From: a virus
Length of the DNA: 64,000 nucleotides
IMG/VR virus record: IMGVR_UViG_3300034283_001962
Location: 32,001 to 96,000 of that record
Direction: 5' to 3' (one strand)
A program made the translations under genes and the position numbers. Below are positions 1 to 9,828 of the stretch, piece by piece. The notes beneath the pieces were generated by a model that saw only the letters and a list, made by a program, of their open reading frames with translations, ran no database searches and had not been told where the DNA came from. Each line of letters opens with the position of its first letter. The stretch's first letter is position 1.

Positions 1-1028
1 CCTTCATTTAAACGTGATTCAGCTAATGCTCTTTCTTGTAAGATAACAGGATCATATACGTCATATTTTACACCTGCGATACCTACTTGAGGATTTGTAA
101 GATTAGATTCTCTTACATTAAGAAGGTTAAAATTATTTAGGTTGTTTCGCAGGTGATCTATTTCATCTTTATCTAAATCAAACTTATCAATAATTTCAGA
201 TAATTCCATTACATGTACTGTACCTACAGCATAAGATCCGTGTTCTTTATGTATGTATTTTTTATTAGGCGTAGAAAGATGCCAAAAGTTTGCTGGATTA
301 ATTACCTCAATACTAAAACCTACTTTTGAATTATCTTCATATATATGAAAGAACTCTCTTGATGAAATAAGAAGATCTCTAAATGCATCTTCGCTTTTTT
401 CTTTTATATTAAAGTAAGCATCTAATGCTTTTAACATGTGATTAGCCCAACTCTCTGCAAGAGTAGAATAATTAGCTAAGTTTTCCTCAACTTCTTCCAT
501 AGTAAGTTGTTGCTTTTCTTCTTCTTCTACTTCTATTCCTTTTTCTGCTAGTTGAGCATTAATCTTTTTGGTAGCCATTTGCATAATCAAACCCTCTACC
601 ATTGAAGTCTTATACTCAGCCTCTTCGCTTTTACTATCGTCATCAAATGCTTTTACAAAACGAGTATTAGGACGATTACTCATTTCTCCTATCATTGTAT
701 TTAATGGAGGATTCAGAATCGAGTAATGTTTAACATAAGAAGGTAATTCTAAGTCCTCAACCATTAAGTCTACAAAACTACGAACATCTTCTTTTTTAGT
801 TTGTTCATAGAAGTCTTCAGGTGTAAGAATACCTTTAACAAGATTATAGTTTTTTACAAACTTATCTCTATTCTTTGTATATTGTGAATAAGCAACATTA
901 GCAAAGTAATCAAGATTTTGTTTAATCCATTCATTCCCTTTCTTTTTCTTATCAGAAACAAATTGGTCAGGATATATATTCATATATGCTGCTCTAATAT
1001 CGTCCTGTTTTGTATATTTAATGATCAT
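1..1028 (-). CDS. Portal protein, N-terminal part (runs off the window)
   Basis: ORF starting MIIKYTKQDDIRAAYMNIYPDQFVSDKKKKGNEWIKQNLDYF, directly downstream of the terminase; resembles crAss-like portals; not in the ORF track because truncated. Confidence 0.75.
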   Translation of the reverse strand, partial: MIIKYTKQDDIRAAYMNIYPDQFVSDKKKKGNEWIKQNLDYFANVAYSQYTKNRDKFVKNYNLVKGILTPEDFYEQTKKEDVRSFVDLMVEDLELPSYVKHYSILNPPLNTMIGEMSNRPNTRFVKAFDDDSKSEEAEYKTSMVEGLIMQMATKKINAQLAEKGIEVEEEEKQQLTMEEVEENLANYSTLAESWANHMLKALDAYFNIKEKSEDAFRDLLISSREFFHIYEDNSKVGFSIEVINPANFWHLSTPNKKYIHKEHGSYAVGTVHVMELSEIIDKFDLDKDEIDHLRNNLNNFNLLNVRESNLTNPQVGIAGVKYDVYDPVILQERALAESRLNE

Positions 1029-4625: not shown

Positions 4626-4976
4626 TTATAATTTTTTAATTAAACTTATATCTAAAGATATATCTCTATTTATAAAATCTAGGTTGATTTGGTGAACTAT
4701 TCTATATTTACCTTGAAATTTTTCTAATAAACCTATTTCTTTTAATTCAGATATCATATTATTGACAGAGTTAACTGAACTGTTATATTTAACAGAGAAG
4801 TCATTTTTGGCTGACAAAGAAGATATCGTACCTCTAATAGCCGTAAAAGCTAATAATTGAAGTTGTTTATTTGTTACTTTAATATTATTAACTAAACAGA
4901 TTATAGAATAATACTTTAGAGCTATATCTAAAGCTGATTCTTCTTGTTTTTTGATTTTTTGTACGATTAAAGTCAT
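4626..4976 (-). CDS. Winged-helix-like hypothetical protein
   Basis: SVNSVNNMISELKEIGLL...YRI pattern. Confidence 0.45.
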   Translation of the reverse strand: MTLIVQKIKKQEESALDIALKYYSIICLVNNIKVTNKQLQLLAFTAIRGTISSLSAKNDFSVKYNSSVNSVNNMISELKEIGLLEKFQGKYRIVHQINLDFINRDISLDISLIKKL

Positions 4977-5061
4977 CGTTCCTAATGTAATTAATTATGC
5001 AAAGATAGTGAAATTATAATATAAAGATATAGTTATATAATAACTTAATGCTATATTAAAC

Positions 5062-5090
5062 AAAAAAATCCTCCCTTTTGAGGAGGATTT
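5062..5090 (-). terminator. Intrinsic terminator closing tRNA operon 1
   Basis: AAATCCTCC/GGAGGATTT hairpin followed by a T-run on the minus strand. Confidence 0.75.
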
Positions 5091-5092
5091 AG

Positions 5093-5166
5093 AACACCTA
5101 GAAAGACTCGAACTTTCACTCTTTTGATCCGTAGTCAAAAGCTTTATCCAATTAAGCTATAGGTGC
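5093..5166 (-). tRNA. tRNA-Arg(ACG)
   Basis: Cloverleaf; anticodon arm TTTGA-CTACGGA-TCAAA. Confidence 0.9.
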
Positions 5167-5169
5167 AGA

Positions 5170-5243
5170 TGGGTGGAATTGGGATTCGAACCCAATCAAG
5201 TGATTCACAGTCACCCGTCAGAATCCAGTCTGAACGATTCCAC
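5170..5243 (-). tRNA. tRNA-His(GTG)
   Basis: Anticodon arm GGTGA-CTGTGAA-TCACT; G-1 and CCA encoded. Confidence 0.88.
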
Positions 5244-5245
5244 AG

Positions 5246-5317
5246 TTCCCTTATCTAGGCTCGAACTAGAACTACCAGAGTCAAAATCTGATGTGTTAAC
5301 CATTACACTATAAGGGA
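5246..5317 (-). tRNA. tRNA-Gln(TTG)
   Basis: Anticodon arm TCAGA-TTTTGAC-TCTGG. Confidence 0.9.
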
Positions 5318-5334
5318 ATAGCATACCATAAAAA

Positions 5335-5408
5335 TGGCACAGGTAGAGAGATTCGAACTCCCAACAGCAGTTTTGGAGACTGACATGATACCATTTCACC
5401 ATACCTGT
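5335..5408 (-). tRNA. tRNA-Trp(CCA)
   Basis: Anticodon loop CTCCAAA; CCA end encoded. Confidence 0.9.
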
Positions 5409-5413
5409 TTCTG

Positions 5414-5485
5414 TGGTAAGAAAGGGTAACGATCCCTTCTCCAAGGTTTTTCAGACCTTTGCTAATCCATCTCAGCTATCTTACC
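5414..5485 (-). tRNA. tRNA-Phe(GAA)
   Basis: Anticodon arm AAGGT-CTGAAAA-ACCTT; atypical T-loop ATCGTTA. Confidence 0.85.
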
Positions 5486-5494
5486 GTAATTTAA

Positions 5495-5568
5495 AGCATG
5501 TTGTACAAATTCTTCGTTTTCACATTGCAGGTGAATTAAGCCTATGTGTGCTGGCTGCGTAACATGTT
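5495..5568 (-). ncRNA. Putative small structured RNA with a Cys-type anticodon hairpin
   Basis: Terminal stem ACATGTT/AACATG, GCAGCCA motif, internal TTCAC-CTGCAAT-GTGAA hairpin; resembles units of the 26973-27398 array. Confidence 0.45.
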
Positions 5569-5598
5569 AAAAGCACTAACCAGATTCGAACTGGTGTG

Positions 5599-5668
5599 AA
5601 TCCAGTATGAGAATCGAACTCATTTCAATAGTTTTGCAGACTATTTGGCTTCCATAACCTCACTGGAT
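5599..5668 (-). tRNA. tRNA-Cys(GCA)
   Basis: Anticodon arm ATAGT-CTGCAAA-ACTAT. Confidence 0.85.
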
Positions 5669-5669
5669 A

Positions 5670-5772
5670 ATTTATACCAATTAAAATCTTTTGCCGTTTT
5701 TCTTCTATGACAATTTGCGCATCTTACATCACATTTTTCAATTTCATTTTTTACCTGATTTAAATCGGTCAT
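5670..5772 (-). pseudogene. HNH endonuclease C-terminal remnant
   Basis: Translates to MTDLNQVKNEIEKCDVRCANCHRRKTAKDFNWYK. Confidence 0.7.
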
Positions 5773-5783
5773 AGTGCTATTTG

Positions 5784-5855
5784 ATCCTCGTAAGGTACTC
5801 GAAACCTTTTCCCCAGTTTACAAGACTGGTGCATCACCATATATGCTTACAAGGA
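5784..5855 (-). tRNA. tRNA-Thr(TGT)
   Basis: Anticodon arm CCAGT-CTTGTAA-ACTGG. Confidence 0.88.
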
Positions 5856-5860
5856 ATATG

Positions 5861-5935
5861 TCGAGTAAACAGGAGTCGAACCTGCATGATGTCTTCACCC
5901 CAAATGAAGAGGCTTACCAGTTAGCCCATTACTCG
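5861..5935 (-). tRNA. tRNA-Pro(TGG)
   Basis: Anticodon arm CTTCA-TTTGGGG-TGAAG. Confidence 0.88.
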
Positions 5936-5947
5936 ATGCTATAAAAT

Positions 5948-5976
5948 AAAAAACCCCCGATTTTATGTCGGAGGGT
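5948..5976 (-). terminator. Attenuator terminator upstream of tRNA operon 1
   Basis: ACCCTCCGA-cataaaa-TCGGGGGT-TTTTT; its 5' arm can alternatively pair with GAGGGTGAA (6040-6048). Confidence 0.85.
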
Positions 5977-6012
5977 GAATAGACTTTTTTTAGTCCGTTA
6001 TGCACGAATAGT

Positions 6013-6105
6013 CTAATTTTTTATGACACATGTACATAGTTCACCCTCTCCACAGATACACTGCGGGGTAAAAGTAAACCACGTATGACGTACTATCTTT
6101 TTCAT
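6013..6105 (-). CDS. Leader peptide 1, MKKIVRHTWFTFTPQCICGEGELCTCVIKN
   Basis: 30-codon ORF between a promoter and a terminator; the sensor block matches the downstream tRNAs. Confidence 0.85.
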   Translation of the reverse strand: MKKIVRHTWFTFTPQCICGEGELCTCVIKN

Positions 6106-6109
6106 AACA

Positions 6110-6141
6110 CAAACATATGAAGAAATTCTGAAACTTCCAAA
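6110..6141 (-). promoter_or_regulatory. Bacteroidota primary-sigma promoter (TTTG-N20-TATGTTTG)
   Basis: Matches the TTTG-N19-21-TAnnTTTG consensus. Confidence 0.8.
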
Positions 6142-6154
6142 TTTATTTTTTTTG

Positions 6155-6225
6155 TTGGATAGGAGAGAATCGAACTCTCTTGCCTACGTTTTACAGACGT
6201 TGCTGGTTGCCCTGACCTCTACCCA
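6155..6225 (-). tRNA. tRNA-Tyr(GTA), short variable arm
   Basis: Anticodon arm ACGT-CTGTAAA-ACGT. Confidence 0.8.
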
Positions 6226-6230
6226 ATATG

Positions 6231-6319
6231 CGGAGAAAGTGAGACTCGAACTCACACTAGAGTTTTATCCCTAGAACAGTTTAGCAAACTGCTGCAGTAC
6301 CATTATGACTTATTCCTCC
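6231..6319 (-). tRNA. tRNA-Ser(GCT)
   Basis: Anticodon arm GCAGT-TTGCTAA-ACTGT; long variable arm. Confidence 0.9.
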
Positions 6320-6324
6320 AAATG

Positions 6325-6408
6325 CGGTGGTAACAGGAATCGAACCTGTATGGCTGTTACACCTTCAACGTTTTCAAGACGCATAAGCCCTCTCTATTGC
6401 GTACCACC
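6325..6408 (-). tRNA. tRNA-Ser(TGA)
   Basis: Anticodon loop CTTGAAA; long variable arm. Confidence 0.85.
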
Positions 6409-6413
6409 AATTG

Positions 6414-6487
6414 TAGCTCTGATGAGATTCGAACTCACACAAAACAGATTTTAAGTCTGCCGCCGTTACCAATTAGACCACAGAGCT
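6414..6487 (-). tRNA. tRNA-Leu(TAA), short variable arm
   Basis: Anticodon arm GCAGA-CTTAAAA-TCTGT. Confidence 0.87.
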
Positions 6488-6490
6488 ATG

Positions 6491-6566
6491 TACCCCTAGC
6501 GAGATTCGAACTCGCAAAACTCCTGATTCTAAGTCAGGCGACTTTACCTAATTTGCCCATAGAGGT
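6491..6566 (-). tRNA. tRNA-Leu(TAG), short variable arm
   Basis: Anticodon arm CCTGA-CTTAGAA-TCAGG. Confidence 0.87.
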
Positions 6567-6574
6567 ATATAAAT

Positions 6575-6604
6575 AAAAAAACCTAGCTCTTTTAGGAACT
6601 AGGC
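6575..6604 (-). terminator. Attenuator terminator upstream of tRNA operon 2
   Basis: GCCTAGTTC-ctaaaa-GAGCTAGGT-TTTTTT; 5' arm alternatively pairs with GGGAACAGG (6645-6653). Confidence 0.85.
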
Positions 6605-6629
6605 TTTAAGAAGTAGGTTAGAAAAAACC

Positions 6630-6707
6630 TTACTGTATATAATCCCTGTTCCCTTGATGAATCAAGAGCGATAAACTGGAATAATATGACAGTAATAGAT
6701 TTCTCAT
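6630..6707 (-). CDS. Leader peptide 2, MRNLLLSYYSSLSLLIHQGNRDYIQ
   Basis: 25-codon ORF with 12 consecutive Leu/Ser/Tyr codons ahead of the Leu/Ser/Tyr tRNAs. Confidence 0.85.
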   Translation of the reverse strand: MRNLLLSYYSSLSLLIHQGNRDYIQ

Positions 6708-6711
6708 TGGA

Positions 6712-7092
6712 TTATCCTTCTACAGAAGTTTCAGGTTCAGTTGGTTCTTCAACTGGATCTACTGGGGGTTCTACTACATCAGTAATAGTACCTTTAAGGT
6801 CAGCAATAGCTAGATCTAATTTATCAGCTACAGCTTGAATTTCTTGTGAAGTTACTGAACTAGCTAATTGAGCTTGAAGATCAGCTACTACAGCTTCAAG
6901 ATCAGTAATTACTTTTGCAATTTGTGCTTGTTCAGCATCAAGAGACAATTGAAGTTCATCTACTTTTGCTGAAAGTTCTTGAATAGTTGCCATTGTTTGT
7001 TTATTTTGTGATTGTATTAAAAATATTTTTTTTACTAAATATACAAGAAATCCTATTGTTAGACTTTGTAAGATTATTATAAATAATAGCAT
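6712..7092 (-). CDS. Coiled-coil protein with a possible N-terminal membrane anchor and acidic Pro-rich tail
   Basis: 126 aa; hydrophobic N-terminus; heptad pattern. Confidence 0.65.
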   Translation of the reverse strand: MLLFIIILQSLTIGFLVYLVKKIFLIQSQNKQTMATIQELSAKVDELQLSLDAEQAQIAKVITDLEAVVADLQAQLASSVTSQEIQAVADKLDLAIADLKGTITDVVEPPVDPVEEPTEPETSVEG

Positions 7093-7110
7093 AGTATATC
7101 TTTTCTACCA

Positions 7111-7142
7111 CAAATATAAACTTATAATTTGAAACTACCAAA
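7111..7142 (-). promoter_or_regulatory. Bacteroidota promoter (TTTG-N20-TATATTTG)
   Basis: Consensus match; drives the 126-aa ORF, leader 2 and tRNA operon 2. Confidence 0.8.
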
Positions 7143-7155
7143 TTAATTTAATATG

Positions 7156-7228
7156 TACTCCTTATTAGACTTGAACTAATAACTTCTTCCATGTAAGGGA
7201 AGCACTCTACCAATTGAGTTAAAGGAGC
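7156..7228 (-). tRNA. tRNA-Val(TAC)
   Basis: Anticodon arm CTTCC-CTTACAT-GGAAG. Confidence 0.9.
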
Positions 7229-7233
7229 AAAAG

Positions 7234-7307
7234 TGGAAGTCATGGGTATCGAACCCATCTCAGTTTGCTTGCAAAGCAATCTCGCCAGCCAAGGAACATG
7301 CACCCCC
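7234..7307 (-). tRNA. tRNA-Ala(TGC)
   Basis: Anticodon loop TTTGCAA; G-rich acceptor with a G.U pair; atypical D-arm. Confidence 0.8.
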
Positions 7308-7313
7308 AAAAAA

Positions 7314-7460
7314 TCAGGACTTTACGCCCTGATTAGTTAACTTAAAATAATCTGCTGCAGAAATCCGGTCTCGTACAAAAAGAGAAATAGGATTTGTACG
7401 AGCTGCAGCTTTTCTTTTCTTTTTGCCAAACTTACGTTGGCTTTTTACTTTCTGTGCCAT
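7314..7460 (-). CDS. Small basic protein MAQKVKSQRKFGKKKRKAAARTNPISLFVRDRISAADYFKLTNQGVKS
   Basis: 48-codon ORF inside the tRNA cluster, ending in a hairpin/T-run. Confidence 0.5.
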   Translation of the reverse strand: MAQKVKSQRKFGKKKRKAAARTNPISLFVRDRISAADYFKLTNQGVKS

Positions 7461-7536
7461 GTGAATACTTGGCTACTGTTTTGTCAGTAGTTACCGTATT
7501 CGGCTCATAGAATTCTTCATATTCATATTATTTAAG

Positions 7537-7609
7537 TTGGCATACTCAGACTCGAACTGAGGACTTCTGCAGTATCAGTGCAGTACTCTAACCACTGAGT
7601 TATACGCCA
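7537..7609 (-). tRNA. tRNA-Ile(GAT)
   Basis: Anticodon arm CTGCA-CTGATAC-TGCAG. Confidence 0.9.
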
Positions 7610-7614
7610 GTATG

Positions 7615-7689
7615 TTGACTCTATCGGATTCGAACCGATGACCTTAACGTTATGAGCGTTCTGCTACTAACCAACTGAGCTAAGAGTCA
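7615..7689 (-). tRNA. tRNA(CAT), probably Ile2 (lysidine) or elongator Met
   Basis: Anticodon loop CTCATAA. Confidence 0.85.
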
Positions 7690-7694
7690 AGAAG

Positions 7695-7767
7695 CCGAGA
7701 GTGGGAGGTTCGAACTCCGACCTTCACATCGACAGTGTGACATGCTCGCCATTACACTACACCCTCG
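7695..7767 (-). tRNA. tRNA-Asp(GTC)
   Basis: Anticodon arm TCACA-CTGTCGA-TGTGA. Confidence 0.88.
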
Positions 7768-7780
7768 TTTAAATTTATTG

Positions 7781-7853
7781 TACTCTCAACGGGGATTGAA
7801 CCCGTATTGACAGATTGAAAGTCTGTTATCCTGACCAATTAGATGATGAGAGC
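7781..7853 (-). tRNA. tRNA-Glu(TTC)
   Basis: Anticodon arm ACAGA-CTTTCAA-TCTGT. Confidence 0.9.
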
Positions 7854-7900
7854 AAAGCTCTTCACCCTCTTTTAGTGAATTTCTCATAATACTATTTTTG

Positions 7901-7974
7901 TGCAGTAAACAAGACTCGAACTTGCAACTTCCACCTTGGCAAGGTGGCACTCTAACCAATTGAGCTATTACTGC
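7901..7974 (-). tRNA. tRNA-Gly(GCC)
   Basis: Anticodon arm CCACC-TTGCCAA-GGTGG. Confidence 0.9.
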
Positions 7975-7975
7975 G

Positions 7976-8049
7976 TGGAGCAGGTAACCGGGATCGAACC
8001 GACATCAGAAGATTGGAAATCTCCTGCACTACCATTGTGCTATACCTGC
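7976..8049 (-). tRNA. tRNA-Gly(TCC)
   Basis: Anticodon arm GGAGA-TTTCCAA-TCTTC; CCA encoded. Confidence 0.9.
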
Positions 8050-8165
8050 ATTTCAGTTTTTCATGAGCCTTGTAGAACTGTAACTACCGCCGGACCTACT
8101 TTCTAGAATTTCCTCCGAACCCCTTTGCACCAGATTTTATATCTGGTGTGGTGCTACTGTTATCT

Positions 8166-8693
8166 TTAACCTACTTTCCTCAGTAATTCACTAAGTCTAA
8201 GTTCTGTGTAATCTTCTAATGGGATGACACTTAAAGCTTTCTTTCTGATAATGTGATCAGCTGCTTTTGTAGCTATCATTTGTCCACTTTTAAAGATCGG
8301 GACTTGGTTGATTCCTTTAGTCCATCCTTTAAAATCTTGTACCAGTTTTGATGACAGGGTTTTTTTGACATCTGCGAAATCAAACTCAAGCCCTTCAATA
8401 GAGATTGGTATCTCTCTACTGATAAGTTCTGATGTTTCGATTGTCTTAACCCCTTCTTCATATAATCTCAGGTACTCTGTTTTGTACCTTTTTTTCTCAT
8501 CATAATTGAATATATAATGAGCACCTCTTAAACCGTAACGGAAAACTACTACTGTAACAAACTTGGTAAGCTTGTAGTCCTGGGAGTCCGTACCTATCCT
8601 AATAGTCAAGTTGTTGTGTTCATTGACTTGTTCTAGAATATGATCTACCAGATTTACTATAGTACCATCCTCTTTTCTGAAGTACTTTTCCAT
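8166..8693 (-). CDS. RNase H-like YkuK/DUF458-family protein (likely start MEKYF at 8693)
   Basis: IGTDSQ...RLYEE...ATKAADH motifs; the annotated upstream start overlaps tRNA-Met. Confidence 0.75.
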   Translation of the reverse strand: MEKYFRKEDGTIVNLVDHILEQVNEHNNLTIRIGTDSQDYKLTKFVTVVVFRYGLRGAHYIFNYDEKKRYKTEYLRLYEEGVKTIETSELISREIPISIEGLEFDFADVKKTLSSKLVQDFKGWTKGINQVPIFKSGQMIATKAADHIIRKKALSVIPLEDYTELRLSELLRKVG

Positions 8694-8706
8694 AACGGTT
8701 TTGTTG

Positions 8707-8780
8707 ATGCAGGGGTGGGCCGACGATCCCACGTATTTCTAGGTTATGAGCCTAGCGAGTCACCTCTACTCTACCCTGCA
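8707..8780 (-). tRNA. tRNA-Met(CAT), possibly initiator-like; atypical T-loop
   Basis: Anticodon arm CTAGG-CTCATAA-CCTAG. Confidence 0.8.
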
Positions 8781-8790
8781 GTTTATAATG

Positions 8791-8862
8791 CGTTCCCACC
8801 AAGACTCGAACTTGGATCAAATGATTAACAGTCACCCGTACTAGCCTTTGTACTATAGGAAC
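8791..8862 (-). tRNA. tRNA-Asn(GTT)
   Basis: Anticodon arm GGTGA-CTGTTAA-TCATT. Confidence 0.9.
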
Positions 8863-8870
8863 ATTTAGTT

Positions 8871-8940
8871 GTAGCCCCAACAAGGATCGAACTCAGCAAT
8901 TGTTTTTTAAATTATAATGTAGTTTTCTATGACAATTACT
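8871..8940 (-). pseudogene. tRNA 3' fragment plus HNH remnant (CSNCHRKLHYN)
   Basis: Isolated GTTCGATCC T-arm half; CxNCH motif on the minus strand. Confidence 0.5.
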
Positions 8941-8941
8941 G

Positions 8942-9013
8942 CAGGGTTACGCAGAATCGAACTGCGACTGAAAGATTAGAAGTCTCTCGTTCTATCCATT
9001 AAACTATAACCCC
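8942..9013 (-). tRNA. tRNA-Arg(TCT)
   Basis: Anticodon arm AGAGA-CTTCTAA-TCTTT. Confidence 0.9.
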
Positions 9014-9071
9014 ATTATATTTAAATTCTCAATAACCTTTGTAAATACAACACATTATTTAATTAAACAAG

Positions 9072-9144
9072 TTCCCCCGCTGAGATTCGAACTCAGCCCC
9101 ATAGGTTAAAAGCCTATTGCCTACTACCAGTTTGCTACAGGGGA
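9072..9144 (-). tRNA. tRNA-Lys(TTT)
   Basis: Anticodon arm ATAGG-CTTTTAA-CCTAT. Confidence 0.9.
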
Positions 9145-9148
9145 TTAT

Positions 9149-9189
9149 AAAAACGAAAAACCCCTGTACCGTTTTACTGGCTCAGGGGT
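9149..9189 (-). terminator. Attenuator terminator upstream of tRNA operon 3
   Basis: ACCCCTG...CAGGGGT-TTTTCGTTTTT; 5' arm GACCCCTGAGCC alternatively pairs with GGCTCAGTGGGTC (9238-9250). Confidence 0.85.
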
Positions 9190-9220
9190 CTTAAAATTGC
9201 TATGTTAAAATTAACTTTTC

Positions 9221-9310
9221 TTAAGTTATAGCAAAAGGACCCACTGAGCCGAACTTCTCATTCGCTCTCCCGATATTATCTACTATAATATATGATGGTC
9301 TTGTTTGCAC
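9221..9310 (-). CDS. Leader peptide 3 (GTG start), MQTRPSYIIVDNIGRANEKFGSVGPFAIT
   Basis: 29-codon ORF; the block IIVDNIGRANEK matches the downstream tRNA set. Confidence 0.82.
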   Translation of the reverse strand: MQTRPSYIIVDNIGRANEKFGSVGPFAIT

Positions 9311-9327
9311 TTTAAAATTTTGAATCA

Positions 9328-9359
9328 CAATATTAAGAAATCTTTTTGATACTACCAAA
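9328..9359 (-). promoter_or_regulatory. Bacteroidota promoter (TTTG-N20-TAATATTG)
   Basis: One mismatch to TAnnTTTG; shares the TTTGGTAGT upstream box with the other promoters. Confidence 0.7.
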
Positions 9360-9363
9360 TTTT

Positions 9364-9828
9364 TTATTTTATTTCTTTTTCTGGTTCTGTTTTAAGCTGA
9401 TTTATATGAAAAATTTGTTCATAAACTGAGTCTGATCGCAATTTTGATAATTTTTTTACATGTTCATTAATCTTTTCTTTAAACATTTTCCTATTCCAAA
9501 TACACCAATATGTTTGAGCATCTCCTTTTATGTATATTTCAGTAAGATCAAATCCAAATTGTTCAATATCTTGAGCTTCTCTACCAGGTGTGTACCATTC
9601 TCCATAACCTATTATTGATTCATGAGGAAAAGAAACCATTCCTACTACTCTATCTATATCTTCGTCATCTTCTTCCTCATCATTAACTAAACCTAATTCT
9701 CTAAGTTTATTCTTACTTGCATCTTTCTTTTTACTAATAGATATTAATACTGGAAACTCAAATAGGTTATCTGTAAAATTAATATCAGGTTCGACAAGTA
9801 TTCCTTGTGGAGTTTTAGTTATGGACAT
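9364..9828 (-). CDS. Hypothetical protein
   Basis: 154-aa ORF. Confidence 0.6.
   Translation of the reverse strand: MSITKTPQGILVEPDINFTDNLFEFPVLISISKKKDASKNKLRELGLVNDEEEDDEDIDRVVGMVSFPHESIIGYGEWYTPGREAQDIEQFGFDLTEIYIKGDAQTYWCIWNRKMFKEKINEHVKKLSKLRSDSVYEQIFHINQLKTEPEKEIK

Follow-up and report, generated by a model that had tools for sequence, protein, structure and literature searches.

Three short leader ORFs ahead of the tRNA genes in the window (the whole 64,000-nt stretch of viral DNA analysed here) can, from their sequences, be regarded with considerable confidence as multivalent ribosome-mediated transcription attenuators that exert feedback control over decoding capacity. Each ORF contains a run of 11 or 12 sensor codons followed by a strand able to pair with the 5′ arm of an intrinsic terminator. 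We found no published description of leader-peptide attenuators that control phage tRNA operons. For one Flavobacterium, amino-acid operons are reported to be probably preceded by leader-peptide attenuation (PMC9723704).

The tRNA array and its leaders

The 25 tRNA genes lie on the minus strand between positions 5092 and 9144 in three blocks, as stated in the preliminary description, and serve all 20 amino acids. ARAGORN detected 23 of them at its default threshold, 24 at -ps95, which added Ser(tga) at 6324-6411, and 25 at -ps90, which added an Ala(tgc)-like gene whose approximate position is 7230-7301. Rfam returned 22 tRNA rows above its cut-off in the window, and the Tyr gene (6154-6225) and the Ala-like gene were absent from its rows at E<=1. 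A 48-aa ORF in block A ends in an extra hairpin that resembles a terminator, and the Ala-like and Val genes lie behind it. The DNA carrying the array comes from a lake-water phage.

Table 1. Features of the tRNA array, in order of transcription
Feature	Coordinates	Strand	Remarks
Promoter A	9328..9359	-	TTTG, 20-nt spacer, -7 box with one mismatch to TAnnTTTG
Leader ORF A	9221..9310	-	GTG start, 29 codons + stop
Sensor A	9254..9289	-	12 codons, only I,V,D,N,G,R,A,E,K; Arg = AGA; Ile as ATA and as ATY
Antiterminator strand A (segment 2)	9238..9250	-	Inside ORF; complementary to terminator 5′ arm; MFE fold; cognate duplex -23.3 kcal/mol
Intrinsic terminator A	9149..9190	-	9-pair stem + T-tract starting 16 nt before tRNA-Lys; from folds (centroid)
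tRNA block A	7155..9144	-	Lys, Arg(tct), Asn, Met(cat), YkuK-like ORF, Gly, Gly, Glu, Asp, Met(cat), Ile, 48-aa ORF + its hairpin, Ala-like gene, Val (gene order)
Promoter B	7111..7142	-	Exact TTTG-N20-TAnnTTTG; ahead of 126-aa ORF, then leader B
126-aa ORF	6712..7092	-	Follows promoter B, precedes leader B; hydrophobic N-terminal stretch followed by a coiled-coil-like part; family matches only weak
Leader ORF B	6630..6707	-	25 codons; starts 4 nt past stop of 126-aa ORF
Sensor B	6663..6698	-	12 consecutive Leu/Ser/Tyr codons; samples CUN + UUR Leu boxes, UCN + AGY Ser boxes
Antiterminator strand B (segment 2)	6641..6653	-	Pairing with 6605-6593 read by eye; automatic duplex weak (-7.1)
Intrinsic terminator B	6568..6607	-	Pattern scan (12 pairs) + folds
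tRNA block B	6154..6566	-	Leu(tag), Leu(taa), Ser(tga), Ser(gct), Tyr(gta)
Promoter C	6110..6141	-	Exact consensus
Leader ORF C	6013..6105	-	30 codons
Sensor C	6058..6090	-	11 codons, exactly R,H,T,W,F,P,Q,C; Arg = CGT
Antiterminator strand C (segment 2)	6040..6051	-	Pairs with sensor codons (1:2) or with 5979-5970 (2:3); duplex -15.8, cognate arm ranks 1 of 10
Segment 3 + intrinsic terminator C + T-tract	5941..5979	-	Pattern scan + folds
tRNA block C	5092..5935	-	Pro, Thr, (HNH remnant ORF), Cys, Phe, Trp, Gln, His, Arg(acg)
Terminator closing whole array	5066..5090	-	Pattern scan

A Bacteroidota promoter had been placed before each block. This holds in full for C, whereas promoter B, also an exact match, stands ahead of the 126-aa ORF, and promoter A departs from the consensus at one -7 position (the -7 box, at -12 to -5, is placed according to PMC9723704). 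The consensus has 12 matches in the window vs 3.5 expected. The ATG of leader C lies 4 nt past the -7 box, so its mRNA is predicted to be leaderless. The start of leader A is uncertain because the ORF has no in-frame ATG, and GTG was chosen; its homologues in relatives begin with ATG. ORFs of the described size (25-30 codons) precede all three blocks, as do intrinsic terminators: a pattern scan of the window gave 12 sites vs 2.5 expected, among them terminators B and C, and terminator A was missing from these sites and seen in folds only. From T-tract to the first tRNA of the block the distance is 15-18 nt for the window's terminators A-C and 8-18 nt over the 19 leaders measured, which leaves no room for a separate promoter.

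The amino acids of each sensor are a subset of the downstream tRNA identities, as first noticed, and sensors B and C cover their whole sets. The chance probability of such a run is 0.015 for A, 2.4e-8 for B and 4.4e-6 for C; among the window's 219 short ATG ORFs, the longest L/S/Y run is that of leader B (12; next best 7) and the longest run in the amino-acid set of C is that of leader C (11; next best 8). The match extends to the Arg isoacceptors, AGA preceding tRNA-Arg(TCT) and CGT preceding tRNA-Arg(ACG), and this correspondence, too, was correctly described and is kept in relatives. Four of the 35 sensor codons (TCC, CTC, ACT and ACC) are read by the phage's U34 tRNAs only by four-way wobble, and ATA is readable by the phage only if one CAT tRNA is lysidine Ile2, so the match is firm for amino acid and codon box, not for each codon. 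Codons ending in G or C that the phage seldom uses are frequent in the sensors, and this may reflect RNA-pairing needs rather than tuning.

Leaders in related and unrelated phages

A search of related genomes, as the preliminary description had suggested, found homologous leaders in 10 further phages, bringing the total to 27 (8 A, 9 B, 10 C) over 11 genomes. These belong to two distantly related groups: TerL identity is 58-62% where measured inside the window's group (L035, L034, L098, L106, G007) and 27-32% to the group of ~165-kb genomes. Among relatives the order of sensor residues is shuffled and synonymous codon changes are present, with the amino-acid set kept. In an unbiased scan of 597 short ORFs from the 11 array-bearing genomes, an L/S/Y run of at least 8 occurred in nine ORFs and a set-C run of at least 9 in ten, and all of them were leaders (9/9 and 10/10); they lie 57-81 nt ahead of the matching block, but in one case with an inserted HNH gene the distance is 564 nt. 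Arg is encoded by AGA in 8/8 A leaders, and by CGT or CGC at 9/9 Arg codons of the C leaders; in the phage's own genes AGA makes up 57% and CGY 23% of Arg codons. Both ATA and ATY are present in 8/8 A leaders. As to departures, a Met codon is missing from 2/8 A leaders, the window's included, despite the Met(cat) genes in its block A, the A sensor of G005 contains one Leu codon, and L106 has no CGN Arg codon.

The strand inside the ORF co-varies with the 5′ arm of its own terminator. The duplex between segment 2 and the terminator arm is -25.3 kcal/mol for cognate vs -16.7 for non-cognate pairs in A, -13.5 vs -9.7 in B, and -17.8 vs -11.1 in C, and the cognate arm ranks first in 15 and among the top three in all of the 27 leaders.

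Block membership is identical in all 11 homologous arrays, so the evidence that sensor composition follows tRNA content, as had been predicted, comes from two unrelated cultured phages of Flavobacteriaceae, Tenacibaculum phage Gundel_1 and Cellulophaga phage Calle_1, in which four tRNA identities rest on relaxed or sub-threshold calls. Their leaders are non-homologous to those of the window, their blocks are partitioned differently, and the composition changes with them. Gundel_1 has a 10-codon Y,S,C,F,W run (P = 4.8e-7) ahead of a Tyr-like gene, Trp, Phe, Ser, a Cys-like gene and Ser; the run is bordered by a TTA Leu codon, and a Leu(taa) gene was not found in the scanned part of the genome. 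Leader 2 of Calle_1 has 16/16 codons in Y,S,N,W,F,C (P = 2.6e-9) ahead of Tyr, Ser, Ser, Asn, Trp, Phe and Cys, and leader 3 has 14/14 in P,E,Q,H,L,R (P = 1.8e-7) ahead of Pro, Glu, Gln, His, an unassigned tRNA, Leu and Arg(acg). In leader 1, 13/14 codons fall within the set of its own block, where Thr is now included; it has an Asn codon, yet tRNA-Asn is in block 2.

Alternative folds and ribosome position

The antiterminator first described inside each ORF is recovered by folds and cognate duplexes, with that of B read by eye. In leader C, the MFE structure pairs the sensor codons with segment 2 as a 17-pair 1:2 hairpin, and segment 2 is also complementary to the 5′ arm of terminator C. Leader A shows the antiterminator in its MFE structure and the terminator in its centroid.

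When ribosome stalling was modelled at equilibrium, P(terminator) without a ribosome was >0.8 in 25 of the 27 leaders and dropped to <0.2 at some sensor codon in 20; it averaged 0.48 over 330 sensor codons and 0.89 over the remaining 433 (Mann-Whitney p = 1e-45). In a truncated-transcript model, sequestration of the terminator arm was lost -3 to +2 codons from the last sensor codon in 26/27. The sensor block, in agreement with the proposed alternative structures, coincides with the ribosome positions that free the antiterminator. For the window, P(terminator) was on average 0.16 at sensor codons vs 0.80 elsewhere in leader A and was 0.12 vs 0.74 in leader C, and the truncated model of leader B switches one codon past the sensor. 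Without a ribosome, leader A favours the antiterminator (P(terminator) 0.10), so its "off" state would need active translation. The terminator never opens in the equilibrium model in 7/27 leaders (B of L098, G007, G008, G009 and G010; C of L034 and G009), and the C leader of G009 shows no switch in the truncated model either.

Proposed mechanism, rival readings and known systems

Every prediction of the trp/his-type attenuation proposed at the outset that could be tested at sequence level was borne out. We infer that the leaders are translated, that ribosome and polymerase are coupled, and that the units respond to tRNA supply. Units A, B and C would stand in series, each made up of promoter, leader and tRNA block, with the 126-aa ORF between promoter and leader in B and the final terminator after block C, and polymerase arriving from upstream would have to pass an intrinsic terminator ahead of the first tRNA of each block. 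A ribosome would translate the leader during its transcription, that of C probably on a leaderless mRNA. If all sensor codons are decoded promptly, the ribosome would cover segment 2, or segment 2 would re-pair with the sensor region, so that the terminator forms and the block stays off. If the ribosome waits for an aminoacyl-tRNA at any sensor codon, segment 2 would pair with the terminator 5′ arm, and capture of this arm would allow polymerase to read through into the tRNAs for exactly those amino acids.

The natural signal of the same attenuators might instead be general translational status or amino-acid starvation, so that they would time the infection by the decay of host tRNA and amino-acid pools following host shut-off rather than respond to tRNA-cleaving defence. 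We consider this possible, if somewhat doubtful. The trp and his attenuators react to both uncharged and missing tRNA, and the three units would jointly watch all 20 amino acids (Arg twice, by codon box), far more than the few tRNAs cut by known anticodon nucleases. Moreover, no defence or anti-defence gene was seen adjoining the array, and the Anabaena tRNA array is described as induced by general translation impairment (PMC8421152). However, extra tRNA does not cure amino-acid starvation, so that feedback would be futile there, and the codon-box-specific sampling of Arg, Ile, Ser and Leu suggests the monitoring of tRNA species, not amino acids.

It is very improbable that we are dealing with ordinary leaky terminators or processing signals, with untranslated short ORFs and tRNA blocks that are constitutive through partial read-through: this would suit the seven leaders whose terminator wins at every ribosome position at equilibrium and the missing ATG of the window's leader A, but leaves unexplained the in-set runs with P down to 2e-8, conservation in 11 genomes with shuffled order and synonymous change, the Arg AGA/CGY split, an ORF scan free of false positives for sets B and C, and the re-partitioned sets of Calle_1 and Gundel_1.

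Equally little credence is due to an RNA switch that works independently of translation, by T-box-like binding of tRNA or as a protein-bound leader, and overlaps an ORF by chance. T-box riboswitches, found mainly in Firmicutes, need no ribosome: each element binds its one tRNA directly and senses, by a terminator/antiterminator choice, whether it is uncharged. The leaders resemble them in a terminator/antiterminator decision that would report the state of specific tRNAs, and they are strongly structured (folding z-scores -3.4 to -5.4). However, one specifier cannot cover 3-10 amino acids, no T-box model matched the window, and no T-box or other cis-regulatory Rfam family reached threshold there; the sole Rfam leader-family row, Phe_leader (24.3 bits vs a cut-off of 55), falls on the final terminator and on none of the leaders. 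What is constrained is membership of the amino-acid set, and synonymous positions are free, which is a signature of translation.

As putative ribosome-mediated attenuators, the leaders have their closest counterparts in the multivalent ones of enterobacteria, those of thr (Thr and Ile), ilvGMEDA (Ile, Leu, Val) and ilvBN. Both have a short leader (predicted to be translated here) with regulatory codons for two or more amino acids, alternative helices 1:2, 2:3 and 3:4, and an intrinsic terminator just before the regulated genes. However, the thr and ilv attenuators govern biosynthetic enzymes by repeated-codon runs for 2-3 amino acids, whereas the phage leaders precede tRNA genes and list 3, 8 or 9-10 amino acids each, mostly once or twice; the codon boxes of one amino acid are divided among leaders, and some of the mRNAs are apparently leaderless. 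The phage leaders show no homology, in sequence or by model, to the enterobacterial attenuators. E. coli pheST, encoding phenylalanyl-tRNA synthetase, has an attenuator with the Phe-rich leader pheM, likewise an attenuation of a translation-apparatus component with feedback on charged-tRNA supply, but the product is a synthetase protein of a cellular gene and one amino acid is sensed, whereas the phage units are viral and would yield the tRNA itself.

The trn operon of Anabaena sp. PCC 7120 is a long inducible tRNA array, supernumerary and mobile like that of the phage, which is described as silent until translation is impaired and then as supplying tRNAs; its control is ascribed to the repressor TrcR on repeats over the -10 box, unlike in the phage without a codon-matched ORF (PMC8421152, PMC10272220), and the main texts of these papers contain "leader peptide", "attenuat" and "terminator" 0 times each. 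Work on phage tRNAs as counter-defence against tRNA-cleaving immunity suggests why a phage would bring replacement tRNAs with it; its subject is tRNA action and resistance to cleavage, and the abstracts do not mention leader-peptide regulation of phage tRNA genes (PMC10264068, PMC11464382, PMC11555353).

Since the tRNA product would relieve the stall that released it, each unit would act as a negative-feedback gauge of decoding capacity, and the phage would probably make a tRNA set only when ribosomes decode the codons of that set slowly.

Leader ORFs, terminators and sensor codons

The tRNA genes of the parent IMG/VR record (118,407 bases, complete by CheckV) are all on the minus strand and cover all 20 amino acids. 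ARAGORN counted 23 at its default setting, 24 at -ps95 with the addition of Ser(tga), and 25 at -ps90 with the further addition of a degenerate Ala(tgc)-like gene, while Rfam gave 22 tRNAs above cut-off, with Tyr and the Ala-like gene missing from its rows. The 25 tRNAs resemble a minimal self-sufficient decoding set, in which one U34 tRNA per four-codon box is joined by Gly(gcc), Arg(acg), Ser(gct), Leu(taa), and two CAT tRNAs. On our reading of the array under standard wobble rules, the coverage of codon boxes is near complete, and CGG is the sole codon that appears uncovered.

The genes form three blocks, A, B, and C, and a preliminary description had placed a Bacteroidota promoter, a short ORF, and an intrinsic terminator ahead of each. 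The blocks, ORFs, and terminators were all recovered: a short ORF lies in the transcribed leader upstream of each block, with homologues in 10 more genomes, and an intrinsic terminator stands between this ORF and the first tRNA gene. As a correction, the promoter assigned to leader B first drives a 126-aa ORF, and leader B starts 4 nt after the stop of that ORF. Leader A has no ATG, and its start was taken as GTG. The T-tract of each window terminator starts 15-18 nt ahead of the first tRNA of its block (8-18 nt across leaders). The possibility that the terminators belong to upstream genes and that the tRNAs have separate promoters is ruled out by this spacing, which leaves just 8-18 nt of room.

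The window contains 12 exact copies of the promoter motif, compared with 3.5 expected. Among 31 leaders, with relaxed variants of the -7-type box included, the gap from this box to the start codon was 4 nt in 11, 7-8 nt in six, and 17-31 nt in eight, namely those of A type and leader 1 of the Cellulophaga phage Calle_1; the remaining six have no promoter of their own and are located after an upstream ORF. An excerpt of a study of Flavobacterium psychrophilum places the -7-type box at -12 to -5 (PMC9723704), so that after a 4-nt gap position +1 would fall on the A of the ATG and the mRNAs would be leaderless. The same excerpt gives 5.5% of mRNAs as leaderless and mentions clues to leader-peptide attenuation at amino-acid operons (PMC9723704).

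Within each leader ORF lies a run of codons, here called the sensor, whose amino acids all have tRNAs in the block downstream. All 12 codons of sensor A belong to I,V,D,N,G,R,A,E,K, a set which makes up 59% of phage residues (P = 0.015 for the run, from the amino-acid frequencies of the phage itself). The 12 codons of sensor B are confined to L,S,Y (19% of residues, P = 2.4e-8), and the 11 codons of sensor C to R,H,T,W,F,P,Q,C (26%, P = 4.4e-6). The match claimed in the preliminary description stands for all three runs; Met has no sensor codon in window leader A. Exchanging the sets between leaders left at most one in-set residue (Arg) per sensor. Among the 219 short ATG ORFs of the window, leader B ranked first for L/S/Y runs with 12 (runner-up 7) and leader C first for set-C runs with 11 (runner-up 8). 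When 597 short ORFs of the array loci were scanned without bias, all nine long set-B runs and all 10 long set-C runs were leaders, each sitting just before the matching block; the broad set A gave seven true and seven false matches. Together with the run probabilities, these two scans rule out that the leader ORFs arose by chance.

Coordinates of the leaders and other features of the tRNA array (window positions unless a locus is named)
Feature	Position	Strand	Remark
tRNA genes	5092-9144	-	
Leader ORF A	9310..9221	-	29 codons
Leader ORF B	6707..6630	-	25 codons
Leader ORF C	6105..6013	-	30 codons
Sensor A	9254-9289		
Sensor B	6663-6698		
Sensor C	6058-6090		
Bacteroidota-type promoter	6141-6110		exact (TTTG, 20 nt, TAnnTTTG)
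Bacteroidota-type promoter	7142-7111		exact
Bacteroidota-type promoter	9359-9328		one mismatch
ORF-internal strand, leader A	9250-9238		
ORF-internal strand, leader C	6051-6040		
5' arm of terminator C	5979-5970		
Cys-Phe tRNA spacer	5486-5597	-	
HNH endonuclease sequence	5641-5772	-	
Ala(tgc)-like tRNA	7230-7301	-	
Terminator-like hairpin	7340-7305		
Basic ORF	7314-7460	-	48 aa
YkuK-type RNase H-like gene	8166-8693	-	PF04308
Variant G>A	6090	+	run X7
Gly/Cys-rich mini-ORF, L201 (reverse complement)	about 910-975		
Gly/Cys-rich mini-ORF, L314 (reverse complement)	306-		
Gly/Cys-rich mini-ORF, L315	1598-		

Pairing alternatives and modelled switching

All four leader regions that were folded were more stable than their shuffles (z of -3.4 to -5.4). 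In the minimum free energy (MFE) structure of leader C, the sensor codons form a 17-pair hairpin with a strand inside the ORF, and this strand is also complementary to the 5' arm of terminator C. In the folding model, leader C is thus of the classic 1:2, 2:3, 3:4 layout, and leader B likewise. For leader A, the MFE structure is the antiterminator, in which the ORF-internal strand pairs with the terminator arm, while the centroid is the terminator.

In the folds, the antiterminator helix (2:3) and the terminator are mutually exclusive. Terminator sequences diverge widely among homologues, and the ORF-internal strand matches its own terminator arm best. The mean duplex energies (kcal/mol) were -25.3 for A, -13.5 for B, and -17.8 for C with the cognate arm, compared with -16.7, -9.7, and -11.1 with non-cognate arms, so that cognate duplexes were the stronger in all three classes, although that of window leader B is weak in the automatic measure. 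The cognate arm ranked first in 15 of the 27 leaders of the window and its homologues, and among the top three in every one.

We simulated a stalled ribosome by blocking 28 nt around every possible A-site codon and then computing pairing probabilities. When no ribosome was present, the probability of terminator pairing exceeded 0.8 in 25/27 leaders; when a sensor codon occupied the A site, it fell below 0.2 in 20/27. Its mean was 0.48 over 330 sensor codons versus 0.89 over 433 others. When transcripts ending before the 3' arm of the terminator were modeled, the 5' arm was sequestered until the A site cleared the last sensor codon, and in 26/27 leaders sequestration was lost at an offset of -3 to +2 codons from it. 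The block defined by composition is hence also the structural window in which a stalled ribosome would give read-through.

The anti-antiterminator (1:2), which includes the regulatory codons, is clear in window leaders C and B and in 20/27 leaders in the stall model. Window leader A has a weak 1:2 helix and a terminator probability of 0.10 without a ribosome, and hence favors the antiterminator when untranslated. Seven leaders never switched at equilibrium, and one of these, leader C of a relative (G009), did not switch in either model.

Conservation, distribution and tracking of tRNA content

Relatives were sought in IMG/VR and a metagenome collection with an alignment of 42 large terminase (TerL) sequences and three degenerate leader motifs. 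The TerL belongs to a large family on contigs of 110-130 kb, and homologous arrays with leaders were found in 10 further genomes (L035, L034, L098, L106, and G005-G010). With leader C of G008 left out, as it lies beyond the retrieved piece, the leaders total 27 (8 A, 9 B, and 10 C). TerL identity to the window is 58-62% for L035, L034, L098, L106, and G007, and 27-32% over part of the protein for G005, G006, and G010, in which the block order is C-A-B.

Leaders were present at two of the 21 close TerL loci of IMG/VR (L035 and L034), and the 42 metagenome loci yielded L098 and L106 plus L105 and L126, which are duplicates of L035 and L034. No leader or terminator was found in seven relatives whose few tRNAs are scattered among protein genes (L030, L027, L029, L108, L111, L122, and L133), so that the lineage does not share the design throughout. 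L001, which is the closest TerL relative by this single protein (59%), lacks an array in the vicinity of TerL; its record gives three Rfam tRNA matches, and ARAGORN at a relaxed threshold called one unassigned tRNA there. The leader-C motif matched 24 stretches in IMG/VR, of which five were true leaders, and 93 in genome_contigs, none of them with a tRNA block. The leader-B motif matched 12 stretches (five true leaders) and the leader-A motif seven (four already known and three without tRNAs). A blastn search of GenBank phages with the region gave matches confined to tRNA genes and no close relative, and a search for related loci in IMG/VR with the YkuK-like protein of block A found nothing. 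We found no convincing leader and terminator ahead of the tRNAs in the crAss-like phage cr106_1 or the Bacteroides phage DAC19.

Across the homologous leaders the order of the sensor residues is shuffled and synonymous codons vary, but set membership is retained. The match of Arg codons to isoacceptors, which had been noted for the window, is conserved: Arg is AGA in 8/8 A leaders, ahead of tRNA-Arg(tct), and CGT or CGC in 9/9 Arg codons of C leaders, ahead of tRNA-Arg(acg), compared with 57% AGA and 23% CGY among the Arg codons of phage genes. Both ATA and ATY codons for Ile occur in 8/8 A leaders and ATG in 6/8, and sensor B covers both Leu boxes and both Ser boxes. The leaders are hence enriched in the codons that would give the regulatory signal, both through the runs and through the matching of Arg and Ile codon boxes. 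The sensors are also strongly biased to G/C-ending codons that are rare in phage genes (ACG, ACC, TCC, CTC, GGG, GGC, GCG, GTG, CCG, and CCC); the shares of the corresponding amino acid are 3% for ACG (Thr), 3% for TCC, 4% for CTC, 4% for GCG, 6% for GTG, and 6% and 5% for GGG and GGC. This bias may tune sensitivity or may merely serve RNA pairing. A search for RNA runs that contain the window DNA gave none. In four lake-water DNA runs the population was nearly clonal; an anecdotal variant on a single contig of depth 3.6 changes an Arg codon of sensor C to Cys, which is still in the set.

Because the partition into blocks is constant over the 11 homologous arrays, testing composition against tRNA content needs outside phages. 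Two cultured Flavobacteriaceae phages with non-homologous leaders served this purpose, and in both the sensors track the tRNAs, with the caveat that four tRNA identities come from relaxed calls. In Tenacibaculum phage Gundel_1 (MT732474.1), a promoter, a 20-codon ORF, and a terminator precede Tyr-like (sub-threshold), Trp, Phe, Ser(tga), Cys-like (its anticodon loop is odd), and Ser(gct), and the ORF contains 10 successive codons from Y,S,C,F,W. Three leaders are present in Cellulophaga phage Calle_1 (MT732432.1). In leader 1, 13/14 codons belong to the set of its block (Ala-like, K, I, G, M, D, T, V, R(tct), and I(tat)), with one Asn codon out of place. Leader 2 has 16/16 codons in Y,S,N,W,F,C, followed by Tyr, Ser, Ser, Asn, Trp, Phe, and Cys, and leader 3 has 14/14 in P,E,Q,H,L,R, followed by Pro, Glu, Gln, His, an unassigned tRNA, Leu, and Arg(acg). 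Thr (in leader 1), Asn, Leu, and Glu are in other blocks than in the window and are sensed there, which suggests that the leaders moved with the tRNAs. Among the leaders of these two phages, Calle_1 leader 1 and, more weakly, that of Gundel_1 switched at equilibrium, and no others did.

The arrays also contain other elements. In a further correction to the preliminary description, the Ala-like and Val genes of block A stand behind an additional terminator-like hairpin, which immediately abuts the Ala-like tRNA. This tRNA has a G3:U70 pair and an aberrant D-arm, was detected neither by ARAGORN at default or -ps95 nor by Rfam at E<=1, and may be degenerate or unusual. The 3' arm of the hairpin contains the stop codon of a strongly basic 48-aa ORF, for which no family was found in Pfam or PHROGs, and a ribosome ending there would sit over the hairpin, which is the reverse of the logic of the leaders; G005 has a similar 50-aa ORF directly ahead of leader B. 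The YkuK-type gene lies between tRNA-Met and tRNA-Gly of block A, and in G005 and G006 an ORF with similar C-terminal residues ends at the equivalent site before tRNA-Gly. Based on this conserved place, the gene and the tRNAs are probably under common control. HNH endonuclease genes, intact or as remnants, are dispersed in the arrays of the window, G008, G006, and G009 (the latter three on L313, L201, and L314), and in G008 they are inserted between the terminator of a leader and its tRNA block. The spacer between the Cys and Phe tRNAs holds a tRNA-like T-arm and acceptor fragment, which suggests a broken or displaced tRNA gene beside an HNH remnant. Mini-ORFs or extensions that are rich in Gly and Cys, with runs of these two residues, occur on or beside leaders of G006, G009, and G010.

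Known systems and the possible role of the leaders

The attenuation-type layout first proposed for the window is supported at the sequence level by anatomy, conservation, co-variation, and the match of composition, and the same evidence supports the leaders as ribosome-mediated attenuators; we infer their translation, its coupling to transcription, and their response to tRNA supply. The mechanism would be the one known from the leaders of trp, his, leu, thr, and ilv. Unlike these, the window leaders have tRNA genes as their target, span 3 to 10 amino acids each and all 20 per genome, split the codon boxes of one amino acid between leaders, and probably initiate without a 5' untranslated region. 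None of the Rfam leader families (His, Thr, Trp, Leu, and Phe leaders and Bacteroid-trp) reached its gathering score. The sole leader row in the window region was Phe_leader, located on the final terminator with 24.3 bits against a cut-off of 55, and the Gundel_1 leader scored 27.9 against 55. T-boxes are ruled out, as the T-box model gave no row at E<=1 in 4800-9700.

In our literature search we found no paper on leader-peptide attenuators before tRNA genes. Excerpts of the phi38:1 transcriptome paper mention only host tRNA genes (PMC5335546). Among published systems, the closest in function is the trn array of Anabaena, which, according to excerpts of the reports, is induced when translation is impaired but is controlled by the repressor TrcR and not by attenuation (PMC8421152, PMC10272220).

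Most likely, the leaders act as ribosome-mediated attenuation units arranged in series, and each would serve as a negative-feedback gauge. A delay in decoding at any sensor codon would favor the antiterminator and read-through and thereby supply more of exactly those tRNAs, and the quicker decoding that follows would restore termination. As to purpose, homeostasis as host pools decay, starvation, and an answer to tRNA-targeting immunity are all candidates, the last being the topic of papers on phage tRNAs (PMC10264068, PMC11464382, PMC11555353). We consider it possible, though rather unlikely, that the leaders form a codon-resolved gauge of the whole decoding apparatus, by which the loss of any one host tRNA species, be it through anticodon nucleases, other tRNA-targeting immunity, or host shut-off, would switch on only the matching third of a self-sufficient viral tRNA set, as an inducible counter-defense with the ribosome as sensor. 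If so, the rare G/C-ending sensor codons and the leaderless mRNAs would tune its sensitivity and coupling.

The reason for the presence of tRNAs in phages has been under debate for decades, and the proposals include codon supply, host shut-off, and counter-defense; to our knowledge, the regulation of phage tRNA genes is almost unstudied. Experiments are feasible because the same design is present in the cultured pairs of Tenacibaculum with Gundel_1 and of Cellulophaga with Calle_1 or phi38:1, and the leaders, which would be small natural gauges of single tRNA pools, could find further use as reporters. If they act as the sequence indicates, Bacteroidota phages would set tRNA synthesis by a direct readout of decoding speed, through classic attenuation at an unprecedented breadth, with as many as 10 amino acids covered by one leader and all 20 by one genome, and the debate would become testable, since the inducer of read-through would reveal what the tRNAs are for.
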